Counted from the first letter of the whole stretch, positions 1 to 46,988 are shown. The stretch: 60,505 nucleotides of DNA, filler included, from Globobulimina sp. (GCA_003354225.1; 11 parts of 11 records of this genome joined end to end with filler, not necessarily neighbours in it); one strand, 5' to 3'. Numbers and translations are program-made. Notes: a model not told the origin generated them from the sequence alone.

Positions 1-954
1 GGTGGTGTCATGGAACACGACTCGGTTATGGAAGGTGCAACAGAGCACGAACACGTCCTCGTATATATTGAACTGTTTGCTGTGGCCGCACAACTCACCA
101 CTTTGAAGAATAATTTGGCGGCGTTTAGAGTGAATAGAGCACGGTGCCTCATTGCAAACAAAGGCGTGAAGCAAGCGGAAGAGAGAGTGCCTTTCGATGA
201 AAAAGCGCCGGGATTTGATATGTTGATGTTGCTGACTTTGGAGCATTTGGCCCAAACCAAGCAAGTTAGAGAGCAAATGATTATGCAGACGAGAGCCATG
301 ATTTATAATTTGAGTGAGATTGAAAGCGACCAAAATGTGGCCCAAATGATGAAATTATTGAGAGAATATGAAAAAGAATTGTTGCATCGTCGGGATATGA
401 TTGAAATGCAATCGTGGATGGCTGAGAGGAGATTTTTTGAAATGAACAATACCTCCACGCGAATACAGAAAGCATTGCAACAATTAATAAATAAAAAAGA
501 GACACAAAGGAAGCAATTGGATGAGGAAAAGGAGCAATTATTGATATGGAAGGAAATGATGTTATTGAATTATGATGAGATGGATCAAGAAAAAATTGAC
601 AATTTGCTTGAAAAACTGAAGAATGAAAAGCCAGCAACGTTGAAAACGATGGGCCAAAAACGACGATGTCCGCACGACAAAAAAGAGTGTGTTGACCATC
701 TATGGCATGATAATTGTGGCCGAGGATGGCATTCCAATGGCATTGGAGGAGAAAGAAAGGGACAGCCAAACCCGTTAAAAACACGAAAACGGAACAGAAG
801 AGATGCAAATTTGAACGCATTTGAACAAATTAAGCCAGGATGGAATGCCCGGAATAGAAATCCGCAATATATGCAACCAGCATATTCGGCACCGCCTCCT
901 TTAAATCAATGGGCACAGCCACCACATCAACGCAATAATGGAAATCACCAATAA
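1..954 (+). CDS. Gag-like ORF, 3' portion (frame open from base 1)
   Basis: Coiled-coil-rich; Cys/His cluster CPHDKKECVDHLWHDNCGRGWH; basic, Pro/Gln tail; directly upstream of RT. Confidence 0.7.
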   Translation, partial: GGVMEHDSVMEGATEHEHVLVYIELFAVAAQLTTLKNNLAAFRVNRARCLIANKGVKQAEERVPFDEKAPGFDMLMLLTLEHLAQTKQVREQMIMQTRAMIYNLSEIESDQNVAQMMKLLREYEKELLHRRDMIEMQSWMAERRFFEMNNTSTRIQKALQQLINKKETQRKQLDEEKEQLLIWKEMMLLNYDEMDQEKIDNLLEKLKNEKPATLKTMGQKRRCPHDKKECVDHLWHDNCGRGWHSNGIGGERKGQPNPLKTRKRNRRDANLNAFEQIKPGWNARNRNPQYMQPAYSAPPPLNQWAQPPHQRNNGNHQ

Positions 955-1140
955 ATATCTGCAAATTAAGCATAAACACATATTAAGAACTGGCCAATAA
1001 AATAGTTCTTGGGTCGGAGTTATACATTAATTCTGGTTTTTATTTTTTGTTTTCTTTTTTCTATGTTTTCCAAACTTGCCTTAGATAACTTTGTAAAGCA
1101 TTTATTATTTAACATTCAATATAAATTTCACAATACACAG

Positions 1141-3078
1141 TCGCGAAAATATAAAACGCAACACGCGGCAGTCGAGAACAACCAGAAAGTCAAAGGTTTT
1201 TACCAAACCTGGAAAACCGCCAAGGTACCACAAAGTCCACCAAAATGGAGCCTACCGTCAGAGAAATTTATTAAAGCAATGGACACATTACCAGATGGAA
1301 AAACAGGTAATATTGGCCATCCCGATCAAAGATTAAAAGATACGATGAGGGATTTATTGGAGAATGGAGCCCAAATAACCTCCAACAAAGACATCAAACT
1401 CACTAGGAATGACACAGAAGAATACCCCCTGACCATTGACCAACACATTCAGAGATGCGAAACCATACAAAAACGCATCAAAGAAAAGGCGATTTGGGGG
1501 CCACATCACGAGAACAATATGCCCGAAGGATACCAGGATTACCATATAAACCCGGTATTCTTCAAAGATGAGACACCTTTGGGAGGGGCGAAGAAGGAAA
1601 GAATGATAATCGACTGCACCAATTCAACGCAGGATGGATTCGCACCAAATGATAATATATTCGAATGGGAAAAGAGTTGTCAATATATCACTATACTGAC
1701 AATTATACGGATGATCGTAGCATTGGGGATAACATGGATGATATCGGCAGACGCACAGAATGCGTTTAATAGGGTGCCGATCAACAATAAATTCATACAT
1801 TGGTTTGGAATGAAAGTAGGAGTATGGATATTTTTGTGGACAGCATTGGTATTCGGAGGAGGTTCCAGTTGCAGCATATATACAATATTCGCAGCAACAG
1901 TGGCATGGATTATTTCTAATACATATCAGCACATATTTTACATTGGAAAGAATTGTGTATTGAAGAATTATTTGGATGATTTTTTTGCAGGACATCGGAG
2001 TGAAAGCAAATGTTGGCAGCAGTATTATGCTATAAAATGGATGTTTAAATGGTTGGGGATACCCACCCAACAAAAGAAACTTATCACACCCACACAAATT
2101 ATGATATGGATCGGATTTATATTGAATTTGATCACCAGGACATTGGCCATACCAATGGCAAAAATAAAGAAAACTATCGTGAGAGGAACACGACTGTTGA
2201 GAGCACACCAAAGCAAACAGGAAGTGGCAGCAAAGCAAATATCGGGATATATTGGCATCGCACGGCATATATCATATGTACATTATTACATAATTCCAGC
2301 CTTAAGGCGCTTAGAAGAGGCCGTAGCTGGTAAAGAGCCATCGGATAAAATAAAAATCACAGTGGAGATGGCCAGAGACATTGAATTGGTCATTGAACCA
2401 TTGATGGATCCAAATAATAACTCCATCAAATTTGACTGGCTGCTTTATGATAAATCAAAGGCAGATATTACGATTGAAACAGACGCCGCGGGAAAGCTTG
2501 GAATTGGCGGACTGGAAATGATGAAAAATGGCATTTTCTATGGAGTTATGTATAGAGAGTTATTTGAATGGAACAAATTGAACCCGCCGGACATTGTTTA
2601 TTTGGAACTACTGGCGATATATGTAATGGTTATGATAAACCCTGCAAAATATACAGGGAAAGCAATATTATTCTTATGTGATAACAAGGCAGTTTGCGCC
2701 ATTATGGCCAAAAAATGCGCTTGTTTCTATCGGAAAGATTTGCAGGAACTGCTTAGAAGAATTTGCAGAGCCTGCAACAAATATAAATTCTACGCTTGGA
2801 TTAATTGGATATCCACGGATATGAACCCAAGAGCCGATGGGCTATCACGCGGAAAACACAATGCATTGGAAAGTTGCAACAAAGATTGGAACTTAAAGAG
2901 TGAAAATTCATCAGCAATATTTCATGGAAATGAGGGAATGAGGATCTATAAAGAAGCCAGGAAACGAATGGCAAACTTGAAAGGAAAGCAAAAGAAATGT
3001 AAATGCAAAAGGGAGCAAACTTGTAAGCAACAGAAAGTTTATCCAAAATGGCAATCTTGCAACCAATATAAACCATAA
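1141..3078 (+). CDS. Reverse transcriptase + RNase H (pol); true start uncertain
   Basis: RT motifs ISADAQNAF, LVFGGGSS, YLDDF, WIGF; RNase H motifs TDAAG, LELLAI, CDNKAV, NPRADGLSR. 1009-1140 looks intronic (T-rich, ends ACACAG). Confidence 0.93.
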   Translation, partial: SRKYKTQHAAVENNQKVKGFYQTWKTAKVPQSPPKWSLPSEKFIKAMDTLPDGKTGNIGHPDQRLKDTMRDLLENGAQITSNKDIKLTRNDTEEYPLTIDQHIQRCETIQKRIKEKAIWGPHHENNMPEGYQDYHINPVFFKDETPLGGAKKERMIIDCTNSTQDGFAPNDNIFEWEKSCQYITILTIIRMIVALGITWMISADAQNAFNRVPINNKFIHWFGMKVGVWIFLWTALVFGGGSSCSIYTIFAATVAWIISNTYQHIFYIGKNCVLKNYLDDFFAGHRSESKCWQQYYAIKWMFKWLGIPTQQKKLITPTQIMIWIGFILNLITRTLAIPMAKIKKTIVRGTRLLRAHQSKQEVAAKQISGYIGIARHISYVHYYIIPALRRLEEAVAGKEPSDKIKITVEMARDIELVIEPLMDPNNNSIKFDWLLYDKSKADITIETDAAGKLGIGGLEMMKNGIFYGVMYRELFEWNKLNPPDIVYLELLAIYVMVMINPAKYTGKAILFLCDNKAVCAIMAKKCACFYRKDLQELLRRICRACNKYKFYAWINWISTDMNPRADGLSRGKHNALESCNKDWNLKSENSSAIFHGNEGMRIYKEARKRMANLKGKQKKCKCKREQTCKQQKVYPKWQSCNQYKP

Positions 3079-3213
3079 ATTAATTCTGCAAATTTACAAT
3101 CATATTTAAAATTTTTCTTATTATTTACAAATACAAACAAACTCGTTTCCGAAAGCAAACTACTCGCAAACGCCAGACTTACTTTTTCTTTTTTTCACAT
3201 TAAAAACAAAAAC

Positions 3214-4299
3214 TTGCTTCAAAAGGTACGAAAAGATAAGCGGTTTCGGCCAAAGAAGTTAACCGACCAACAGTTTAGAATGAGAAGAGCCGTAAATTGG
3301 CAATTTAGGCACGCAACAAAAACAAACGAACAATATGGATCAGTCGAAAAGTATTGGATTATATTCAATAAATTACACCAAAGACAAATAGATGATTTCA
3401 GTGAGGATAATATCATAGATTATATGATATGGAATAAAGAATGTAAGGCATCATTTGGATGGACAGCAGTGCATTCACATCAATTCGGAATACGTGACAT
3501 CGCACTGAAATATAATAAAAAGATCAAAGTCGATAAAACAGAAATGCCCAATTTATACAACTATAAAATCGCAGAAAAGAGGCAAAAGCCAGGAAAAGGA
3601 GGATCGCAGCCAATAAATGAACATATGATACATTTATGGACACAAATTATAAGAAAGGATCGGACCATCGATAAAATAACAAAACTATCATGGATTGCTA
3701 TTATAAATATGGCATTCACGGAGATTAAGAGAATCAGTGAATACACAATCGACATAAAAATAAAAGACAATCTCACATATAACAGCCTACAATTTGAGTA
3801 TGACATAGATGCAAATAATTGGAAACAATCAACATATATAATTTGGGAACGAGAGAAAGGAAAAACACATCAATTTAACTTTGCAAATAACACCTTAAAG
3901 TCGGCAATTATCTGCCAATGTAACACCAAAGAAAAGGTCTGCACCAAATGTGCATTGATTGAATTGACTGAATACAGATTGAAGCAAAGCAAAATAACAA
4001 ATCAACAATTTGATAGAAATCAATATATCTTCACCGACAATGACAAGCCAATAAACAAATATATGGTTGGAAAAATGATAAAAGAGTTATGTAGAAAGAC
4101 AGGATTTGATGAAACTAAGTATACATCACATGGATTTAGGAAAGGTGGTACACAAAAGGCCATAGCCGATGGTGTACCACTCCCACAAATACAAAAGCAA
4201 GCAGACTGGAATGGGCCAGCAATGATATTTCGTTATAACAATAATATAACAATAAGCAAACAAATAAATTTAATGAAAAGCGTCTATAAAACGCATTGA
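3214..4299 (+). CDS. Tyrosine recombinase (lambda integrase family)
   Basis: Full catalytic set: R in KRISEY, K in KGKT, HGFR, W in ADW, Y in FRY; first ATG at 3280. Confidence 0.92.
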   Translation: MLQKVRKDKRFRPKKLTDQQFRMRRAVNWQFRHATKTNEQYGSVEKYWIIFNKLHQRQIDDFSEDNIIDYMIWNKECKASFGWTAVHSHQFGIRDIALKYNKKIKVDKTEMPNLYNYKIAEKRQKPGKGGSQPINEHMIHLWTQIIRKDRTIDKITKLSWIAIINMAFTEIKRISEYTIDIKIKDNLTYNSLQFEYDIDANNWKQSTYIIWEREKGKTHQFNFANNTLKSAIICQCNTKEKVCTKCALIELTEYRLKQSKITNQQFDRNQYIFTDNDKPINKYMVGKMIKELCRKTGFDETKYTSHGFRKGGTQKAIADGVPLPQIQKQADWNGPAMIFRYNNNITISKQINLMKSVYKTH

Positions 4300-4357
4300 A
4301 AATAATTTAATTTAACTTAATTTAAAACAACAACAAACCGACAGGAAAACCAAACGA

Positions 4358-4577
4358 ATGGTAATATAAGGAATGAGGAAGGAAAGGACATAAGACAAAC
4401 GGTAACGAGTGGTATATTTAGTGTTTCTGGAACCTCCTATAAGTCCGTAAAAGTTCCAGACTACACCGAGTACCCTACCTAGTAATTACCATACGTCCTA
4501 ACCCCTAACGGGGCCCCTCAAGATATATATAGCTCGCCGAATATAATACGGAGTTATATGCGTAGCAAATATAACTC
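4358..4577. repeat. Cluster of inverted repeats in the element's noncoding junction
   Basis: ATGGTAAT 4358-4365 / ATTACCAT 4485-4492; TCTGGAAC 4426-4433 / GTTCCAGA 4453-4460; CCCC-TAAC-GGGG 4502-4513; GAGTTATAT 4551-4559 / ATATAACTC 4569-4577. Confidence 0.75.
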
Positions 4578-4846
4578 TAGTTATATAGAAGAACTATACA
4601 ATACAAGAATAACATTATGAACGAAGAGATCTTGACAATTCATAATGTGACGTAATAAATCTCCGAATTGAAATATATAATTCTCGTTTCTTCCTATAAT
4701 TTTTTTTAGGAATGAAGAAACAGCTAAGTCTGAAAAGAAGTTTTCAAAAACTAACTTCCCGCAGAGACCCCCTGAACAAAACAAAACAGCATCACCCCAG
4801 AAAAAGAGCAAAGACACAAAGCACATTTAGCAATTTGCAAACAACA

Positions 4847-5158
4847 ATGAGCGAAGTGGAGCAACCAACGGAACCAAAAACATGGGATCAATCGAAGGCG
4901 ACCGTAGCCGAGCAATTGAATATGCCATGGGACCAAATCAAGGCCATCAATGACAGTGACCAATTAATGCAGCATTACCATGCATTGGATAGTTATCACC
5001 AATTGGTGTTATTAAGAGAATTAAAAATCGATCAAGTCCGATTAATTAATCAAGAATTAGAGAATGCATGCAAACGGCAGCAGGAACAGGTCGACCAAGT
5101 ACGAGCAGCAACAGGCTGTCACCCAACAGGATCTGCAGAATTTATTAGCCGGCAATGA
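4847..5158 (+). CDS. Small leading ORF of the retroelement, function unknown
   Basis: ATG at 4847 (MSEVEQPTEPKTWDQ...), protein-like helical composition; the frame is open back to 4712. Confidence 0.5.
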   Translation: MSEVEQPTEPKTWDQSKATVAEQLNMPWDQIKAINDSDQLMQHYHALDSYHQLVLLRELKIDQVRLINQELENACKRQQEQVDQVRAATGCHPTGSAEFISRQ

Positions 5159-5416
5159 CAATGAAAATGGATTAAAAGTTTAGTTTTTAAATTTTTTATT
5201 GAAAAAGAATGTTTTTTTGAGTGACAATTGACGTCACACGGAAAAAGGAAGAATAATTTGTATGCAATCATCTGTTTTTTTTTCGGAGCATACAAATAAA
5301 CCAACAAACAGTTGGTGGCCGATGCGATGGATAAAGTCGGTGGAATGATTGAGACATTCTCGGGTGCCATGAACGCACAAGGCACGAATATGGAAAAGAT
5401 CACAAAAACAGTATCA
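5064..5416 (+). CDS. Probable spliced 5' part of gag (exon 5064-5177, intron 5178-5311, exon 5312-5416)
   Basis: MHANGSRN...NENGLK, phase-0 intron GTTTAG...AAACAG, then LVADAMDKVGG...KITKTVS open to the contig end and in phase with base 1. Confidence 0.55.
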
Positions 5417-5516
5417 NNNNNNNNNNNNNNNNNNNNNNNNNNNNNNNNNNNNNNNNNNNNTTAATTAATTAANNNNNNNNNNNNNNNNNNNNNNNNNNNN
5501 NNNNNNNNNNNNNNNN
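5417..5516. other. Artificial contig linker (also at 10933, 16445, 21956, 27466, 32976, 38485, 43994, 49501, 55006)
   Basis: 44 N + TTAATTAATTAA (stops in all six frames) + 44 N, identical each time. Confidence 0.99.
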
Positions 5517-5531
5517 GCAATTTGTATATTA

Positions 5532-6344
5532 ATGATGAAATGTGGCAAATTATTGGACAAAGAGCACAAACCGACTATGCATAAATACATAAAATTATTA
5601 ACAGAGCATAGTAATTATCAGCGATTTGGGGATAACGTTATTGGATTAATTGATACTGTCAAGGAAATGAGAAATAACAAATGGATGAAATATTTACAAA
5701 TGCAACACAAATTCAACAAATTAGAAACTGAATATAAACAATTAAAGGATGGAAGTAATGAATTAAGAATAGAACATAATAAAGTAACGAGTGAACATAA
5801 TGAATTATGCATAAAATATGATAATTTGAATGAAACCCATAAGGAATTAAGGATAAAATATGATAATTTAAAGGAGAAACGTAACGAATTAAGAATAAAA
5901 TATGATAATTTAAATGAAAAACATAGCAAAATATTGCAAGATTATACCTTATGGAATTCAAAAGATATTACAAATTGGATTATTAATTTAGATATATCAA
6001 AATATGAGAAATACGCAGATAAATTAATAATAAATTTAGTGAATGAATGTATTGATGGAAAATGCTTAATAAATATACAAAAAAATGATTTACATAGATT
6101 AGGAATAACACAATTTAGAGATAAACAACATATATATGATGAAATTCAAAAATTAATTGAAACAACACAGAGAAATAATGCATTAATTAAACAATGTGTG
6201 ATGTGTGAAAAACGAATACCAATATATGCATACACGCCGTGCGGTCATTTATGTATTTGTCGGACATGTAAAAAAACCATAAACTTTGAAACATGTCCAG
6301 TTTGTCAAACGCAATGTGACAATTTAATTCAAATTTACTCATAG
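5532..6344 (+). CDS. Coiled-coil + SAM + C3HC4 RING protein, possibly 5' truncated
   Basis: 14-aa repeats ELRIKYDNLNEKH; SAM-like WNSKDITNWI...IDGKCL...LHRLGI; RING CVMC...PCGHLCICRTC...CPVC. Confidence 0.85.
   Translation: MMKCGKLLDKEHKPTMHKYIKLLTEHSNYQRFGDNVIGLIDTVKEMRNNKWMKYLQMQHKFNKLETEYKQLKDGSNELRIEHNKVTSEHNELCIKYDNLNETHKELRIKYDNLKEKRNELRIKYDNLNEKHSKILQDYTLWNSKDITNWIINLDISKYEKYADKLIINLVNECIDGKCLINIQKNDLHRLGITQFRDKQHIYDEIQKLIETTQRNNALIKQCVMCEKRIPIYAYTPCGHLCICRTCKKTINFETCPVCQTQCDNLIQIYS
5755..5925 (+). repeat. About four 42-nt coding tandem repeats
   Basis: Recurrent GAATTAAGAATAAAATATGATAATTTAAA variants encoding heptads. Confidence 0.75.
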
Positions 6345-6488
6345 TGTTTTCGTAATACTTTTAATTTATGTAATATTGGCGAAAACTGTTGCTTATGACG
6401 TGCATTATTCAAGGAAAAGTTAGTGGTAATAATTAAAAATGTAGGATAGAGTTTATTTGCTTATTTAAAAAAATAAAGTTTGTGATTA

Positions 6489-8129
6489 CTAATCAGAATC
6501 ATCAAACGATCCTCGATCATCATCTCCTTCATCATCACTATCTGCATGAAATTTCCTTAATTTCTGTATTTTGGAAAAAATTGTCCCTTGAACACCATCT
6601 TCATTTTCAATTTCATTTTTTCGCTCCTCCTCTCTTTCACTTTTACTTTGAACCTTTTTTTTCTTTAATCCTTCCCTCGCTTTTCTCAATGCATTCACAT
6701 CGAATACAAATCTTTCTTTTTTTTGATTTCCCGCTTCCTCAATAATCTCTTCCTCAATATTTTTATCCATTTTTTGCAACGATTCATTCTGAGCATCTGC
6801 TTCAAAAACAACTACATACACAAAACAAAAAGAAACTGTATTGATGGAAAATAAAATGTATTTAATCCAAAACTAACATGATTGCTTAATTTCAACTCCA
6901 TTTTCTGCAGCTTCCAAAACACCAAAATCTGTTTTATTCCACATATTTTTATTCGCAATTTCGCAAAAAACACATAAAGAATCACCGAACTTCTTTGTTG
7001 TTTTAATTCAGTCCGTTTCTCTTCATTTCGAGCAACGATATCTTTTGGTGTTGGGAAAATATGTAATTCTGCTTTTTCCTCTTCTCTCTCATCTAATTTT
7101 ACCTCATTTGGTATGGATGGTGGTGGCGGCACCGGCGGTTTAATACTATCATCATCTTCAAATTGAATATTTATTTCATGTTCATTTAATACATCGGATG
7201 GAATAAAAGATTCTTTTTCTTCATTATTCTTCCATTTTATATCAGTTACAGCAGAAACAGTATTAATATTTTTAGTATTTTGCGCATGGAATAAATTCGA
7301 ATCAAATCTATATTTGGGCATATTGTCTCGATCTAAAACACATTGATATTTTATACGATCTCCATACATTTTCTGTTGTGTTTTTACATTATTATATTTA
7401 TCGCATATTGATGGCGGGGCCGCTGCCAATCTGTGATGTTTGTCATTGTCATCTCTTTTATTTATTGATTTTTTCCGTTTTTGTTCACGTCTTCTTTTAA
7501 AATCTGTGAAATATACAAAATATTAATGTCACTGTGCGAAATTGCGCTATTTTCGGAGATGGAGAACTTGAATTTTTTGCTGGTGAATATGCATTGCGGT
7601 TTGTACCAAATACCATACAATCTGCCACTGATTGGACCCATTGCGGAATTTGTTGTGTTTTGGTTTCGGGTTTGTTGGCTTTTTGTGTTTTTTGATGGAT
7701 TGAATGTAATAAAGAAACTGTTTCCGTATTCGTTGGTTTTTGGTTGCGTTGTTTTAATGATAAATTATAATTTGATCTTTTGGGCGCGATTGGATGCGAA
7801 TTATGTGCAGTTTTATTAATTAATGGTTTATCCATTTGTAAATTGCCTATATTGTTTGGATAATTTGATAACGAATAAATAGTGGTTGATTTATTTGGGT
7901 TTGATGCAATTAATGCAGTTTTTTTATATGCATTGTCTATTCGTTTTGCGATGGATGACAATAATTTTGATTCTTGTTTAATACGAAAATGGATAGTATT
8001 TACTGCTTGATTTACAATCACATTTAAATGATTTAAATTATCCATAATCTGATTTAATACTTCACCTGGTGGCAGATTCATGTTTGCCATTGGTACAGCA
8101 AACGAATGTGTTTCAAACTCAGTTGCCAT
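6489..8129 (-). CDS. WASH1: WASH complex subunit 1 homologue (3 exons)
   Basis: WAHD-like N-terminus EVLNQIMDNLNHL...TTIYSLSNYP, SVADCMVFGTNRNAY, LAAAPPSI, poly-Pro, acidic C-terminus; introns at about 7504-7567 and 6812-6990 restore the frame. Confidence 0.75.
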
Positions 8130-8217: not shown

Positions 8218-10388
8218 ATGAAACCAGATAAAGAAGAAAAATCAAGTTTGAAATGCAATGACATTATGAAAAATATTTTATATGATCAGCAGAATCGGAT
8301 AGCAACACTTGAACTGAGCGAAGCAGTGTATCCGTTAAACTTTTTCATACAACAACACAATTTACAAAAGCAAGACTTTGAAACCTTTCAACAAAATATG
8401 CCATCTTATATATCCACGATGAAAACGGAAATATCCAAACACAAATCAACAGCCTGTAATACAGAAAAACTAGTAATTAACATTTGTTGTATTATAGAAA
8501 CGGCTTTACTGAAAGACGATATATTTCATGCAATGGCTGTACATCTTTGTCGAAACACATTTGAAACAAAAATGTTCACATCCAAACAACGCATACTATG
8601 CATGCAATACATACAAAAAGAAGTTATGTAATGTACCAAATCTATATATTCTATGTACAAAACTTAAAACGTTTAAATTAGTTTACTAATACGGACGATA
8701 TAAAAGCGGATTTGGATATGTATACCGAAGACGACAATAATTGCGAAATTATCGATGTATTGGACGTAACCAAAATTGAAGCGCAAAAATGGATAAATGA
8801 ATTAAATACAGCGAGAGAAGAATCACTTAAACATTCATCGACAAAACCCTCTGTCCATTCAAATGTGGATGTACATGAAATGTGTGATGATATAAAAGAA
8901 ACGCCACAATGTTCTGAGTGCAAAGAGCAATATGTTCCGAGTTATTCGTTAACAGATTGCCGATTGATAGTAAATGCATTAATGGTGGTTATGAACGATG
9001 AAAGCAACCAAATTAAAGGAATGGGCACAAACGAGACCAAACAATTTAAAAATTCATGCGGCAATTTAATGTATAAATGTTCACCAAATGTTTAGTATAC
9101 AACTTATATATTCAAATATGTCAATTTTAATATTCGCAAAAACGTTTGTTTACAGCACTTGGATATAATTTGTGATTTAATCGCTCAGCATCAATTGAAA
9201 TATTTTATGCGGCATAAAAAATTAGACACAAGTTTGAATGGCATCATTCGTGATTTTTTAGTCAATGAACGAGGCATAAAAGTGACGAATACAAAGGCAT
9301 TGGAAACAGATGGTTTAGTCATGAAACGGATGCTTAATTATCTACCATTTATCACCGCGTTGCACTCCAAGACAAAATTAAAAGAATCCGCGAAACCGTT
9401 GCAATTAGTCATCGCATTGATGACTTATAGAGCTGAGACAGAGATTATTAATGCATATAAATGTATTGACTACAATCAGGAACATACGATATGCATTGAT
9501 ACGGTGTGTCTATATTTGCCGAGAATGATGGATTTGATATTCAAACAACTCAACAAGGACAAAAACAAAAACATTTGGCAGATTCCGCAGAAGAAACATA
9601 ACCATGACGCAGGCTTCCATAAAACAGAGATGTTTTACGACAGAATATTTGGTGATATCCCCAGGTTCATCGTGAAATGCACTCGAAACGAACCAGTTGG
9701 AGTCAAGTTTTTATTGCGGATATTCATATTATTAGGACGGGAATATCAAAGCAAAGGATATTTAAAGACATATCCACGATGCATTTATGCATTACAATCA
9801 TTGGATGGTACCGTAAAGACTTGTATTGATGGGGCAGTGTATGACAAATTAGTTGATATAAAACATCCCATCCATGCGTTTCCAATGTTGCTTGCAAAGA
9901 AAAGATATGAATGCGATCAGTTAATGTTGAAGCGAGAGTTGGAGAAGATTTTAGAGCGGAAAAAAGGCATTCATTTGGGAGATAGGAAGGAGAGACGTGA
10001 TTTTATCACTTACTTAGAAGAAATCCAACTGTATAATGATAATGTGAGTTCATATGGAAGTTCCATTCTTGTATTGATGGAAACACATTATTCAATGTTT
10101 ACGACGATAATCACACCACAGAAATATAAGAGCGGTCACTTGTTTTTTACGCGAAAAATGTATAATTTGCGTGCAATTGGCATCGTGCGGTTTATGGAAG
10201 AGGATATTTTGAAAGTATTGCCGGAGTATTTTGAATATAATAAACTGGGAAATGTTTTGGAGAAAAAGCAGTTGGAAAGCATACGGAATGGAAGGAGTGT
10301 GGAGAAATATTGCAATGATAAAGAATTTGAAGAATATGAAGAAGAGTTTCGGAGATTTTATAAATGTGCGAATGATTTAGAGTTGTAA
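8218..10388 (+). CDS. Multi-exon hypothetical protein
   Basis: Three consecutive + ORFs (8164, 8712, 9159) separated by short AT-rich intron-like gaps; no recognised domain. Confidence 0.55.
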
Positions 10389-11032
10389 AATAAAACAAAT
10401 GAAAGGCAAATAAATGATGATACAGATAATGATTCTGACGATTCGGATGCTATTAGTTATGGAGGTCAACATCATAATGCCTTGCACTATCAAGGTAGCA
10501 TCATATCGGAGATAATGGATGGAAAATAGGTCTACATTTATTTGTTAATAAAATGAATCTAGATTATAGTACGAATTAGTTTGATCTATAAGTAGTTGTC
10601 GCTGAGCTTTCGGTTAACGTAAAGTAACCATTGTCAAAGTGCTTTAATTGAAACTTAGTTAGTTCACAACACAAAAAACTACAAAAGATAAACAACAAAC
10701 ACACCACAAAGTAAACACAAATGAAACCAAAATGTAAGTATATAACAAAGTAATTCTTTAAATAATATTATTTCAATAAAAATAAAAATAAAAAAAGTAA
10801 ATCCAAAAACCAAAATTGAAATAATAAAACATATTAATTTCATAAAACAGTGATTAAAAATAACAAAACATGAAATATAATAATGTAAAACAAATGAATT
10901 TCTCAACTAATTCCATTATAACATAGATGCAANNNNNNNNNNNNNNNNNNNNNNNNNNNNNNNNNNNNNNNNNNNNTTAATTAATTAANNNNNNNNNNNN
11001 NNNNNNNNNNNNNNNNNNNNNNNNNNNNNNNN

Positions 11033-44093: not shown

Positions 44094-46988
44094 TATGGTC
44101 CTGTGGAATGCCGATTTTCTTCCCAATCGCATGCGCAGTCACCTCATTATCGCCAGTTATCATATAACAGGCAATATTCTCTTGCGTTTCTAAATAATTT
44201 ATCACATTGTACGCATCCGCTTTAATGCGGTCCGCAATGGCTAAAATCCCACATAACTCTCCATTTATCCCTATAAACACACAAGTATTGCCATTCATTT
44301 CCAACTGCCTCGCTTTGCCCTCCACAAAGCCCACATATCCATCTTCATCTTCATCTTTCTCCTCATCCTCATAATCCTCACCACGCAGCCAAGCCGCAAA
44401 CTTCTTGCACTGTACGCCGTATTTATTCATATATTGCAAGTTGCCAATCAACACTGTCACGTCCTTATACATGGCAGTCACACCCAACCCGCTGTGCGGT
44501 ATAAACTCATCCGGCGACCAATAATTGCATTTAAACTCATAGCCCAAATTCAAATCGCGTAAATTGTTCCAGCTCTCCGACACCGACACGCCAGATACGG
44601 AGTATTCATTGGCCAGCTCCGCCCCTTTTACGCCATCCCTTTCGTTATAAATCCCCTCAATAAAGTTGCACACCGCAGTGCCAATCAAATGCTCCGACTG
44701 TTTCTCCGCACCGTAGATATAATTCCAAAACCTATCCCTCGCGGCACTGGCACGCATATTGTCACTCGGCGCGGACCCGAATATTTCATGCAAACTCTGA
44801 TCAGAGATCTTCAGCACATTCACAATCTGCATCTTGCCCTGTGTCAACGTGCCCGTTTTGTCGAATAAAATGCAATTAGTTTGCCCCACAATCTCCAGCG
44901 GCTCGCCGCCTTTGAACAAGACGCCTAACTCGGCCGCCTTCCCCGTCGCCACCATCACCGCAGTCGGCGTAGCCAACCCCAAGGCGCACGGACAGGATAT
45001 CACCAACACGGAGATGGCAAACAAAAAACTATAATATATGTTGGAATGCGCGCCGTGTTCGCCGCTCTTTAAACCAAACAATTTGTCCGCGTGAATGCTG
45101 CCAGTTTCAAAGCCGATATACCAGCCCAGGAACACCAGCAACGCTATCAGCATCACACAGGGCACGAACCGCGCGGCGATGCTGTCGGCCAGGTTTTGGA
45201 TGGGCGCTCTGCTGCTCTGCGCATTCTCCACCAGCGTTATTATCTTACTTAGCACCGTCTCATTGCCGATCTTGTTGACGCGAATGTAAACCGTATTGCT
45301 GAGGTTCACCGTGGCGCCAATCACCTCATCGCCGACGCCTTTGTGCACCGACATGGACTCGCCAGTGATGAGCGACTCGTCCATGGAGGACACGCCAGAG
45401 ACTATGACCCCATCGCACGGGCATTTACTGCCACGCGTCACTTCCAAGATGTCGTTGAGCTCAATTAGGCGTGCATCGATCTCGCGGATTTTCAACACAC
45501 GCGGGACGCTCCCGGATGCGTCAGATGCGTCGTTTTCATTTTCGTGTTGCGGGTCGCGATAATTCTCCACTAAGCGTGCTACGGACGGGGCTAAGTCCAT
45601 CAGTTTGTCCAAAGCTTGCGAGGTTTTGCCTTTGGCGATGGTTTCCATGTATTTGCCGAGGATGATGACAGTGATTAAGACGGCAGAGGTCTCGAAGGTG
45701 GTATTGGGAGAAGCGTCGTGTCCGACGGTGCAGATAATGACTTGGATGATGCTGAAGAAGTACGAGATGGAGGTGGCCAAAGCCACCAAGACGTCCATGT
45801 TGGCAGCGCCGGCACGCAGCGATTTGTAGGCGCCGCGGTAAAATAATAAGCCAGGCGGCCCGAATTGGATTGGCGTGGCGAGCAGAAATAAGACGGCATC
45901 GTGGATGGAGCAGCCAGCGATAAATTCCCTGTTGAATATGTCTGAGAAGCCATCAAAAAAAGGAAAGATCATAGTGGCTAAAAATGCAGGTATTGCAAAG
46001 AGCAAACTGTATTTGAATAAACGTGTCCATTGCAACATTTCTCGCTGGCGACTTTGCTGTATATTATGTAGAGAAACACCGCAAAAAAGGTATAGAAAAC
46101 GTGCGATTTTGCGCCGGGCGCTGTATATATTTTAACTTGAATGTTTTTCTTTCGTTGGGAGATGTCGCTGGCATCAAACACGATTTTGCATTTATATTTG
46201 TGCTGATTGATGCATTGCGAGATGGTACGCATGCCGGTGATGTTTGGGTCGTACGCGATGGTCGCATAGAACGTGTATATGTCGCTGTATTTGTTGTGCA
46301 TCGGTAGATTGAACGTTGTATGCGACTGCGACACGGATACATTGCCATCATTATCATGCATCGCCATGGAAAAGTCGGATCGGAAGGGTTCGAGCATGGT
46401 GGATGACATGTCAATTTTGGGCAAATCATTGAGTGGCACAGGCGGCTCTGTGCCGGACACATTGGAGACGCCTTCAATGGTCATTATAGTGTCAAAGATT
46501 TGCTGTTTGCTTTCGGTGTGGAAGGGATAGAACAATTGGACGGTGAAGCTGTTTTTGTTGGTGGTGGAGATTAATAATTCAGAGGCGTGGAAGCCGATAT
46601 CTTCGATTTCCTCGATAATGTCGTCGAGGTTGATTTCATTGGAATCGAGTATGACTTCGGCGCGTTTTAACAAAAGAGAGACCGAACAAGATTCAACTCC
46701 GTCGATGGAGGTTAATAGCTTTTGAATCATTGCTGAACAGGCTCCACAAGTCATGCCTTCGATGTTTAGGAATTTCTTGTCCAATGAGTTGGAATCAGAG
46801 GGTGCTTCGTCTTCGTTGGAGAGAAAAGGACGTTGCTCGTCTTCGGTTAACTATGTAGATGTATTTTGATGGTTTAATTTGTATGTCAATGTATATATTG
46901 TATGTATTGAACTGAACCGAACCAGTGTGTTGTTTTGTTTTTTGCTCACGAATTGTGAGATCACTGCACCTGCGCTAGAATGTGTCAT
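44094..46988 (-). CDS. P1B-type copper-transporting ATPase (ATP7/CopA family), 3' truncated
   Basis: HMA GMTCGAC; NMDVLVAL; TGES; CPCALGLATP; DKTGTLT; SEH; TGDN; intron 46057-46136; start uncertain. Confidence 0.93.

Follow-up and report, generated by a model that had tools for sequence, protein, structure and literature searches.

How does a retrotransposon whose three genes are separated by short spacers express all of them? We addressed this question for an apparently intact tyrosine-recombinase retrotransposon of Globobulimina sp. (GCA_003354225.1), contained in a stretch of 60,505 bases that we call the window. A first-pass annotation of this DNA had proposed that one 38-codon leader exon is spliced alternatively to gag, to pol and to the tyrosine recombinase (YR) gene. 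Its coordinates were all correct: the leader opens at ATG 5064 and runs for 38 codons to the GT at 5178, with in-frame stops at 5058 and 5181; the candidate acceptors AG 5311, AG 1140 and AG 3225 are each in phase 0 for gag, pol and YR, respectively; the open reading frames (ORFs) do not overlap; and ATGs are present at 1063, 1279 and 3280. Their interpretation is another matter. The sequence leads us to favor, tentatively, a different organization: a single intron in gag, with pol and YR each forming a cistron of its own that is translated from its first AUG.

Rather than a single locus, the window is a series of 11 unrelated pieces of ∼5416 nt each. Its 20 runs of N form 10 identical spacers between the pieces, in each of which two runs of 44 N flank a 12-nt palindrome composed only of A and T (for example at 5417–5516 and 10933–11032), and features cannot be read across these joins. 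The whole retroelement is confined to piece 1 (1–5416), where it is truncated at the left and right ends, and blastn and tblastn found no similar sequence elsewhere in the window. We compared piece 1 with X1, the only sequencing run found, which is of unspecified kind, consists of contigs and is unable to reveal splicing. One X1 contig matches 5103–5415 without differences and then continues into sequence that fits the window from position 64 onward; this joint (5415 to 64) goes back 5352, with 41 letters. Two copies, arranged head to tail with a period of ∼5.35 kb, are thus present in piece 1, and the 5′ part at the right of the piece (4712–5416) belongs to the downstream one. Of the 118 X1 contigs placed on piece 1, 86 were less than 90% alike, showing that the element belongs to a family with many diverged copies. 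Neither a 5177-to-1141 nor a 5177-to-3226 joint occurs among the 15 of 32 X1 joints listed, which carries no weight. A direct similarity between 5363–5409 and 4–54 was not beyond shuffles (13 of 300 reach its score), so the two copies differ there. We found no direct repeats within 4297–5416 or between this part and the rest of piece 1, and no meaningful inverted repeat in 1–7000; the ends of the element lie outside the piece. Rfam and transfer RNA (tRNA) scans of the window gave no matches, and no spliced-leader gene in particular. The features of piece 1 are as follows.

1–954, + strand: 3′ part of the gag-like ORF of the upstream copy, in frame 1, with its stop TAA at 952–954; cut by the window start.
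955–1140, + strand: gag–pol spacer, with stops, a pyrimidine tract, ATG 1063 and AG 1140.
1141–3078, + strand: pol, with a reverse transcriptase (RT) and an RNase H-like part; frame open back to 1006, stop TAA at 3076–3078.
3079–3279, + strand: pol–YR spacer, open throughout in the pol/YR frame, with AG 3225.
3280–4299, + strand: tyrosine recombinase ORF from its first ATG; frame open from 3079, stop TGA.
4300–4711, + strand: non-coding region of 412 nt between YR and the first ORF of the next copy.
4712–5158, + strand: 148-codon ORF of the downstream copy, in frame 2, with an internal ATG at 4847.
5064–5177, + strand: 38-codon leader, in frame 0; overlaps the 148-codon ORF by 95 nt.
5178–5311, + strand: candidate spliceosomal intron of 134 nt, GT...AG, phase 0, GC 0.28.
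5312–5416, + strand: start of the gag body of the downstream copy, in frame 2, with its own in-frame ATG 5327; cut by the piece end.

Gag, pol and YR share one reading frame (their start coordinates equal 1 modulo 3), for which the chance is 1 in 9. All the stops between the ORFs, four after gag and one after pol, are TAA or TAG. A ciliate-type code that reads these triplets as sense was rejected because host and element ORFs run for hundreds of codons without an in-frame TAA or TAG.

We analyzed the distribution of start codons in the two spacers. After the gag stop (TAA 952), three further in-frame stops follow (967, 973 and 1003). No ATG is found in 939–1062, and ATG 1063, the first in any frame after the gag stop, is in the pol frame. 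When the gag–pol spacer was shuffled, no ATG occurred in 0.12 of the shuffles, and the first ATG was in frame, with that frame open as far as the ORF, in 0.022. The pol–YR spacer has the same layout. A single in-frame TAA (3076–3078) separates pol from YR, and the frame is open from 3079 onward. The longest ATG-free run of piece 1, which has 144 ATGs in all, spans 3049–3279, and it ends at ATG 3280, the first ATG in any frame after the pol stop and one that is in the YR frame. Here, shuffles contained no ATG in 0.057 and an in-frame first ATG open to the ORF in 0.014. A need for splicing in the expression of pol and YR is not supported: both spacers lack ATGs and end in an in-frame first ATG, as would be expected if pol and YR started at their own ATGs, the case that the first-pass annotation had itself given as refuting its proposal. 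The candidate intron 5178–5311, on the contrary, contains two ATGs: the pattern of the spacers thus fits scanning from the upstream stop rather than intron removal. Two X1 contigs from diverged copies lose their fit in the 3′ part of pol and resume it at 3294 and 3295 (likeness threshold 80). This agrees with YR conservation starting near ATG 3280 and carries little weight, as such joints are unreliable.

We wondered where pol begins. An alignment of related pol proteins (see below) fits from the first codon after AG 1140. Two of these relatives, P0010 and P0012, have a Met of their own 5–9 residues before the conserved pol start, and P0002 and P0004 both begin later, with MTP. The alignment and the Met residues of the relatives indicate that coding begins at or before 1141, and ATG 1063 is the only in-frame ATG of pol upstream from that position. 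A candidate in-frame intron of 48 nt (1093–1140, GC 0.21, donor rank 25 of 158 in the scoring below) may shorten pol at its N-terminus to the conserved start, which would reconcile ATG 1063 with the boundary at AG 1140. An AATAAA after gag was considered as a poly(A) signal and dropped: this hexamer occurs 16 times in piece 1.

The first-pass annotation took ATG 5064 as the start shared by all three proteins. This is unlikely: ATG 5064 is the ninth ATG counting from 4712, with eight earlier ones, and the ORF that surrounds it is in another frame and has the better coding signal. This 148-codon ORF (4712–5158) overlaps the leader in a different frame and stays open in 0.0002 of shuffles, versus 0.11 for the leader. 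A coding score based on codon usage, trained on the ORFs of the element, was positive in frame 2 over ∼4830–5095, in frame 0 over ∼5085–5130, and again in frame 2 from 5310. The GC content is 0.42–0.43 over 4847–5177 and falls to 0.28 in 5178–5311, compared with 0.30 in putative host introns. The GC drop at the donor and the coding signal on both sides make a spliceosomal intron at 5178–5311 likely. The proposed leader–gag splice thus keeps a plausible intron, with a donor ranked 2 of 158 and an acceptor ranked 19 of 343, and probably loses the exon that was to start at ATG 5064. Judging from frame and composition, the upstream exon resembles the 4712/4847 ORF running on into the frame of the leader more than a 38-codon exon that begins at ATG 5064. 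Probably, 4712–5158 is the true first coding exon of gag, or else a separate small ORF. Joining it to the leader frame needs a +1 shift within the 95-nt overlap (5064–5158), and in the single copy examined this may be a defect of that copy, a programmed shift or an indication that the two ORFs are separate.

An alternative donor, GT 5099, matches both the 4712 ORF and AG 5311 in phase and would define a 213-nt intron, but it was rejected: it ranks 68 of 158, and 5099–5177 has a coding-like GC of 0.43. Upstream, ATG 4712 is preceded by an ATG-free stretch (4646–4711), with a pyrimidine tract (4687–4707) and AG 4709 just before the ATG. Because of this ATG-free stretch and of the 148-codon ORF, we infer that the transcript starts shortly before ATG 4712. 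Inside the candidate intron, 5229–5236 forms a perfect 8-nt palindrome of the cAMP-response-element type. It could point to an internal gag promoter (ATG 5327), although it is a single occurrence and possibly due to chance.

To score splice sites, we built donor and acceptor weight matrices from 22 ORF-joining GT–AG pairs that a script found in pieces 2–11. These putative host introns measure 44–115 nt (median 78), and some are surely false. The resulting model is weak: held-out sites fell at a median percentile of 13 (donors) and 16 (acceptors), and reached the top 5% in only 4 of 22 cases. The ranks obtained on the + strand of piece 1, among its 158 GTs and 343 AGs, were as follows.

GT 5178, + strand: rank 2 of 158 GTs, bootstrap median 3 (range 1–15).
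AG 1140, + strand: rank 1 of 343 AGs, bootstrap median 3 (range 1–15).
AG 5311, + strand: rank 19 of 343 AGs, bootstrap median 22 (range 3–120).
AG 3225, + strand: rank 131 of 343 AGs, bootstrap median 134.
GT 5099, + strand: rank 68 of 158 GTs, bootstrap median ∼72.

AG 4709 and AG 1084 rank 52 and 58 of 343, respectively. Given the weakness of the model, the high ranks of 5178 and 1140 amount to moderate support, and the middling rank of 3225 neither supports nor excludes this site. As the acceptor for YR, AG 3225 does no better than a random AG, and it reads AAG, an ending found in none of the 22 putative host introns (their selection favored CAG and TAG). AG 1140 holds up better as the acceptor for pol: it is the top AG and stands exactly at the start of homology with related pol proteins, although it is the third AG past its T tract, after 1084 and 1098. 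Phase-0 AGs occur at chance level, two before pol (1098 and 1140) and five before the YR ATG (3225, 3240, 3255, 3258 and 3273). They are so plentiful that their mere presence carries no weight.

A T-rich tract had been noted before each ORF. Only three + strand stretches of piece 1 reach 17 pyrimidines in 20 (1036–1072, 3176–3202 and 4687–4707); each has a cistron just downstream and an AG within 2–23 nt. These tracts are real and nonrandom; the third precedes ATG 4712 and not AG 5311. Among the putative host introns, the pentamer AACGT occurs within the last 20 nt of 5 of 22 (those ending at 8681, 9155, 51844, 57645 and, on the − strand, 56162), far above the expectation from composition. It may be a host branch-site-like motif; it is absent upstream of AG 1140, AG 5311 and AG 3225.

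How would the element then be expressed? In the organization that we tentatively favor, the genomic RNA would start shortly before ATG 4712, and intron 5178–5311 would join the 5′ coding part to the gag body, provided that a +1 shift takes place in 5064–5158. Pol and YR would be separate cistrons on the same RNA, without alternative splicing. Pol would start at AUG 1063 and YR at AUG 3280, in each case the first AUG past the preceding stop, and ribosomes finishing an upstream ORF would reach the next AUG through the AUG-free spacers. A low-yield termination–reinitiation of the LINE-1 type would lead to much gag and little enzyme.

Several observations weigh against this organization. Taken singly, the shuffle probabilities are modest, and we chose the features after viewing the sequence. 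In eukaryotes, reinitiation normally works poorly once an ORF of several hundred codons has been translated. AG 1140, which outscores every other AG of the piece, falls on the first conserved pol residue, and ATG 1063 lies within the pyrimidine tract, has a T at −3 and adds 26 unconserved residues to pol. In the second spacer, 3226–3279 is coding-like: its GC is 0.43, compared with 0.26 in the preceding sequence, and its coding score in the YR frame is positive. Reinitiation leaves unexplained why there are three pyrimidine tracts, one per cistron, and the frame change between 4712–5158 and the leader is also unexplained.

Some of these observations would be accounted for if donor 5178 were alternatively spliced to AG 5311, AG 1140 and AG 3225, as originally proposed. 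The three proteins would then share an N-terminal exon and a start codon, and the unspliced RNA would be the template for reverse transcription. We regard this as unlikely on the sequence features at hand. We are equally doubtful of a version in which a basic, coiled-coil-like exon (4712/5064–5177) would be spliced from GT 5178 to 5312, 1141 or 3226, retrovirus-style, and so replace frameshifting. The ranks of donor 5178 (2 of 158) and AG 1140 (1 of 343) speak for such splicing, the latter at the first residue that can be aligned with related pol proteins and with no ATG nearby; so do the composition break and the YR-frame coding score, which both begin at 3226, and the pyrimidine tracts upstream of the pol and YR acceptors. 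Shared starts have a retroviral counterpart: in Rous sarcoma virus, env shares the gag AUG in frame. There is also a precedent in foamy virus, where Pol is made from its own spliced mRNA, which uses the same 5′ splice site as env (excerpt of PMC3705302). Foamy virus Pol, however, uses its own start codon downstream from the 3′ splice site, whereas a single donor at 5178 needs an in-frame coding leader, and the start of that leader, ATG 5064, is the ninth ATG from 4712 and out of frame in a better-coding ORF. The introns to pol and YR would measure ∼1.3 and 3.4 kb, compared with 44–115 nt for the putative host introns. AG 3225 ranks only 131 of 343, with an AAG ending seen in 0 of 22 putative host introns, AG 1140 is not the first AG past its tract, and the third tract precedes ATG 4712 instead of AG 5311. 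The ATG-free spacers with their in-frame first ATGs would be a coincidence (0.022 and 0.014), and the splice-site model behind the favorable ranks is itself weak. Finally, the head-to-tail arrangement puts donor 5178 and two of the three acceptors (1140 and 3225) on different copies, so that a single leader would have to be an unseen one, left of position 1. Of the splicing interpretation, intron 5178–5311 and the fit of AG 1140 find support; the start at ATG 5064, the acceptor AG 3225 and the need for splicing find none.

The pyrimidine tracts suggest another possibility, an operon-like processing in which they mark 3′ splice sites (AG 4709; AG 1084 or 1140; AG 3225) that receive a trans-spliced leader or a short non-coding cis leader. 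Each cistron would obtain its own capped mRNA and be translated from the first downstream AUG. Indeed, the only three + strand tracts each precede a cistron with an AG within 2–23 nt, AG 4709 lies 3 nt before ATG 4712, and the first ATG past AG 3225 is the in-frame ATG 3280; within ∼12 nt of the first ATG of several host ORFs in the window there is likewise a T-rich stretch with an AG (seen by eye, uncounted). Pol fits poorly: past AG 1084 or 1140, the first ATG is 1245, out of frame, and the next, 1279, would lose 46 conserved pol residues. Moreover, trans-splicing in the host is an assumption, the window contains no spliced-leader gene or other Rfam family, and AG 4709, AG 1084 and AG 3225 rank 52, 58 and 131 of 343. 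We consider operon-like processing quite improbable. A Pol–YR fusion by occasional read-through of TAA 3076, with pol translated from its own AUG, seems to us very improbable. Pol and YR are in the same frame with one stop between them, and the 67 codons of 3079–3279 are free of stops in that frame, against 2 and 4 stops in the two others; shuffles leave 3079–3279 open in 0.005 and 3079–3225 in 0.024. On the other hand, the stop lacks an evident read-through motif, and the sequence downstream from it is AT-rich with no obvious structure (by inspection, without folding). The A that follows stop 3076 makes a strong termination context. The spacer would encode a T-rich, low-complexity linker, and no fused Pol–YR relative was found among the longer proteins, which is weak evidence. 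Read-through would also leave the gag–pol junction, with its four stops, unexplained.

To which group does the element belong? By the structure-based definitions in the available parts of PMC4157794 and PMC8547959, its layout, with gag, an RT and RNase H-like pol and YR and without a methyltransferase, is Ngaro-like and not DIRS1-like or PAT-like. The RT of pol matches Pfam RVT_1 (E 1.1e-8, nt 1726–2082), the sole Pfam family found at E ≤ 0.01 on the 689-aa pol; no methyltransferase was found, and a relaxed Pfam scan of the last 242 residues of pol revealed nothing relevant. Pol ends ∼75 residues past its RNase H-like part, which leaves no room for a methyltransferase. The 12 relatives of pol that we recovered (531–649 aa, 37–50% identity) are close, and pol is a stand-alone ORF in all 12; its C-terminus lies within ∼10 residues of the same place in 8 of the 8 relatives with an uncut C-terminus. 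No fused form of pol was found among 3654 longer candidate proteins.

The putative RNase H domain gave no Pfam or PDB sequence match, including in a PDB profile search. An AlphaFold2 (AF2) model of pol, made from the alignment of relatives, had a mean predicted local distance difference test (pLDDT) score of 68.7, with values of ∼90 over residues 330–650. Foldseek matched this model to 171 chains at E ≤ 0.001, and the best PDB matches were retroelement RTs: Ty3 (4ol8_B, E 3.4e-7), cauliflower mosaic virus (CaMV), foamy virus, murine leukemia virus (MLV) and human immunodeficiency virus 1 (HIV-1). Alignments to RT–RNase H chains extended up to 649 columns. Residues 487–613 of the model (∼nt 2467–2847) follow the RNase H-like order beta-beta-beta-alpha-beta-alpha-alpha-beta. 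Among the relatives, the acidic residues D492, E533 and D558 of this part are invariant and D610 is near-invariant; we take these four to be placed like the catalytic acids of RNase H.

YR lies downstream from pol on the same strand and matches Pfam Phage_integrase (E 2e-8, nt 3976–4245); none of 569 candidates scored as a YR relative. Gag and the 148-codon ORF match no Pfam family, and gag has a single weak relative (P0016, E 4.6e-4) among 1.84 billion representatives. No related loci were found in viral contigs or prokaryote genome contigs, and metagenome contigs contained only 9 distant DIRS-like loci, with 21–32% protein identity. In the non-coding region 3′ of YR, 4400–4600 folds better than shuffles, with a minimum free energy (MFE) of −50.1 kcal/mol (z −2.75, 1 of 200 shuffles as good). 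Several diverged X1 contigs fit only around 4463–4501, with loose ends on either side. This region (core 4463–4501) may be a conserved cis element, for example a recombination or priming site.

The order gag-like, RT with an RNase H-like part, YR without a methyltransferase, in a unit of ∼5.35 kb here, is that of Ngaro elements (available parts of PMC4157794 and PMC8547959). Ngaro elements are defined by split direct repeats of the form A1-[ORFs]-B1A2B2, and in piece 1, which is cut at both ends, the assignment is made from domain content and ORF layout. This element differs in having three non-overlapping ORFs in one frame with ATG-free spacers between them. DIRS1-like and PAT-like elements combine an RT/RNase H with a tyrosine recombinase but differ by a methyltransferase domain (excerpt of PMC4157794), which this element lacks. 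Distant DIRS-like loci have overlapping ORFs (2068–3732/3648–4328 in L001, 625–2271/2178–3032 in L002) where this element has spacers. For expression, a parallel may be drawn with LINE-1, whose bicistronic RNA has a spacer of 63 bp between its ORFs and shows reinitiation at low frequency (excerpt of PMC4091050). In both, a single RNA would carry ORFs that do not overlap but are set apart by a short spacer, and the enzyme ORF downstream would be translated infrequently, once the upstream ORF has been completed. LINE-1 nevertheless belongs to an unrelated class, and the element described here would have three cistrons and longer spacers, with 108 and 201 nt before the first ATG.

We also noted genes in other pieces of the window. 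The 270-aa product of an intronless host ORF at 5532–6344 comprises a coiled-coil part, which three 42-nt tandem repeats (5796–5921) encode, together with a SAM domain and, at its C-terminus, a RING finger. At 44098–46038, on the − strand, lies a P-type ATPase fragment (E1-E2_ATPase, E 1.6e-46) in a piece whose GC content is 48%, versus ∼33% elsewhere. A host origin, an acquired gene and a contaminant are all conceivable for this piece.

We found no report of natural splicing or reinitiation in DIRS-order elements in the literature searched; the splicing described in PMC7192593 concerns an artificial intron reporter. The control of the gag:enzyme ratio is essentially unstudied in DIRS-order elements outside Dictyostelium DIRS-1. 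If the alternative splicing proposed for this element were true, it would mean that an unrelated integration class has converged with retroviruses: the three proteins would have in common an N-terminal module that could carry the enzymes into assemblies of gag, with the intron-bearing RNA serving as template for transposition. Intact ORFs, a pair of spacers without ATGs, three pyrimidine tracts and a likely intron make this family well suited to a clean test of how such elements set that ratio.

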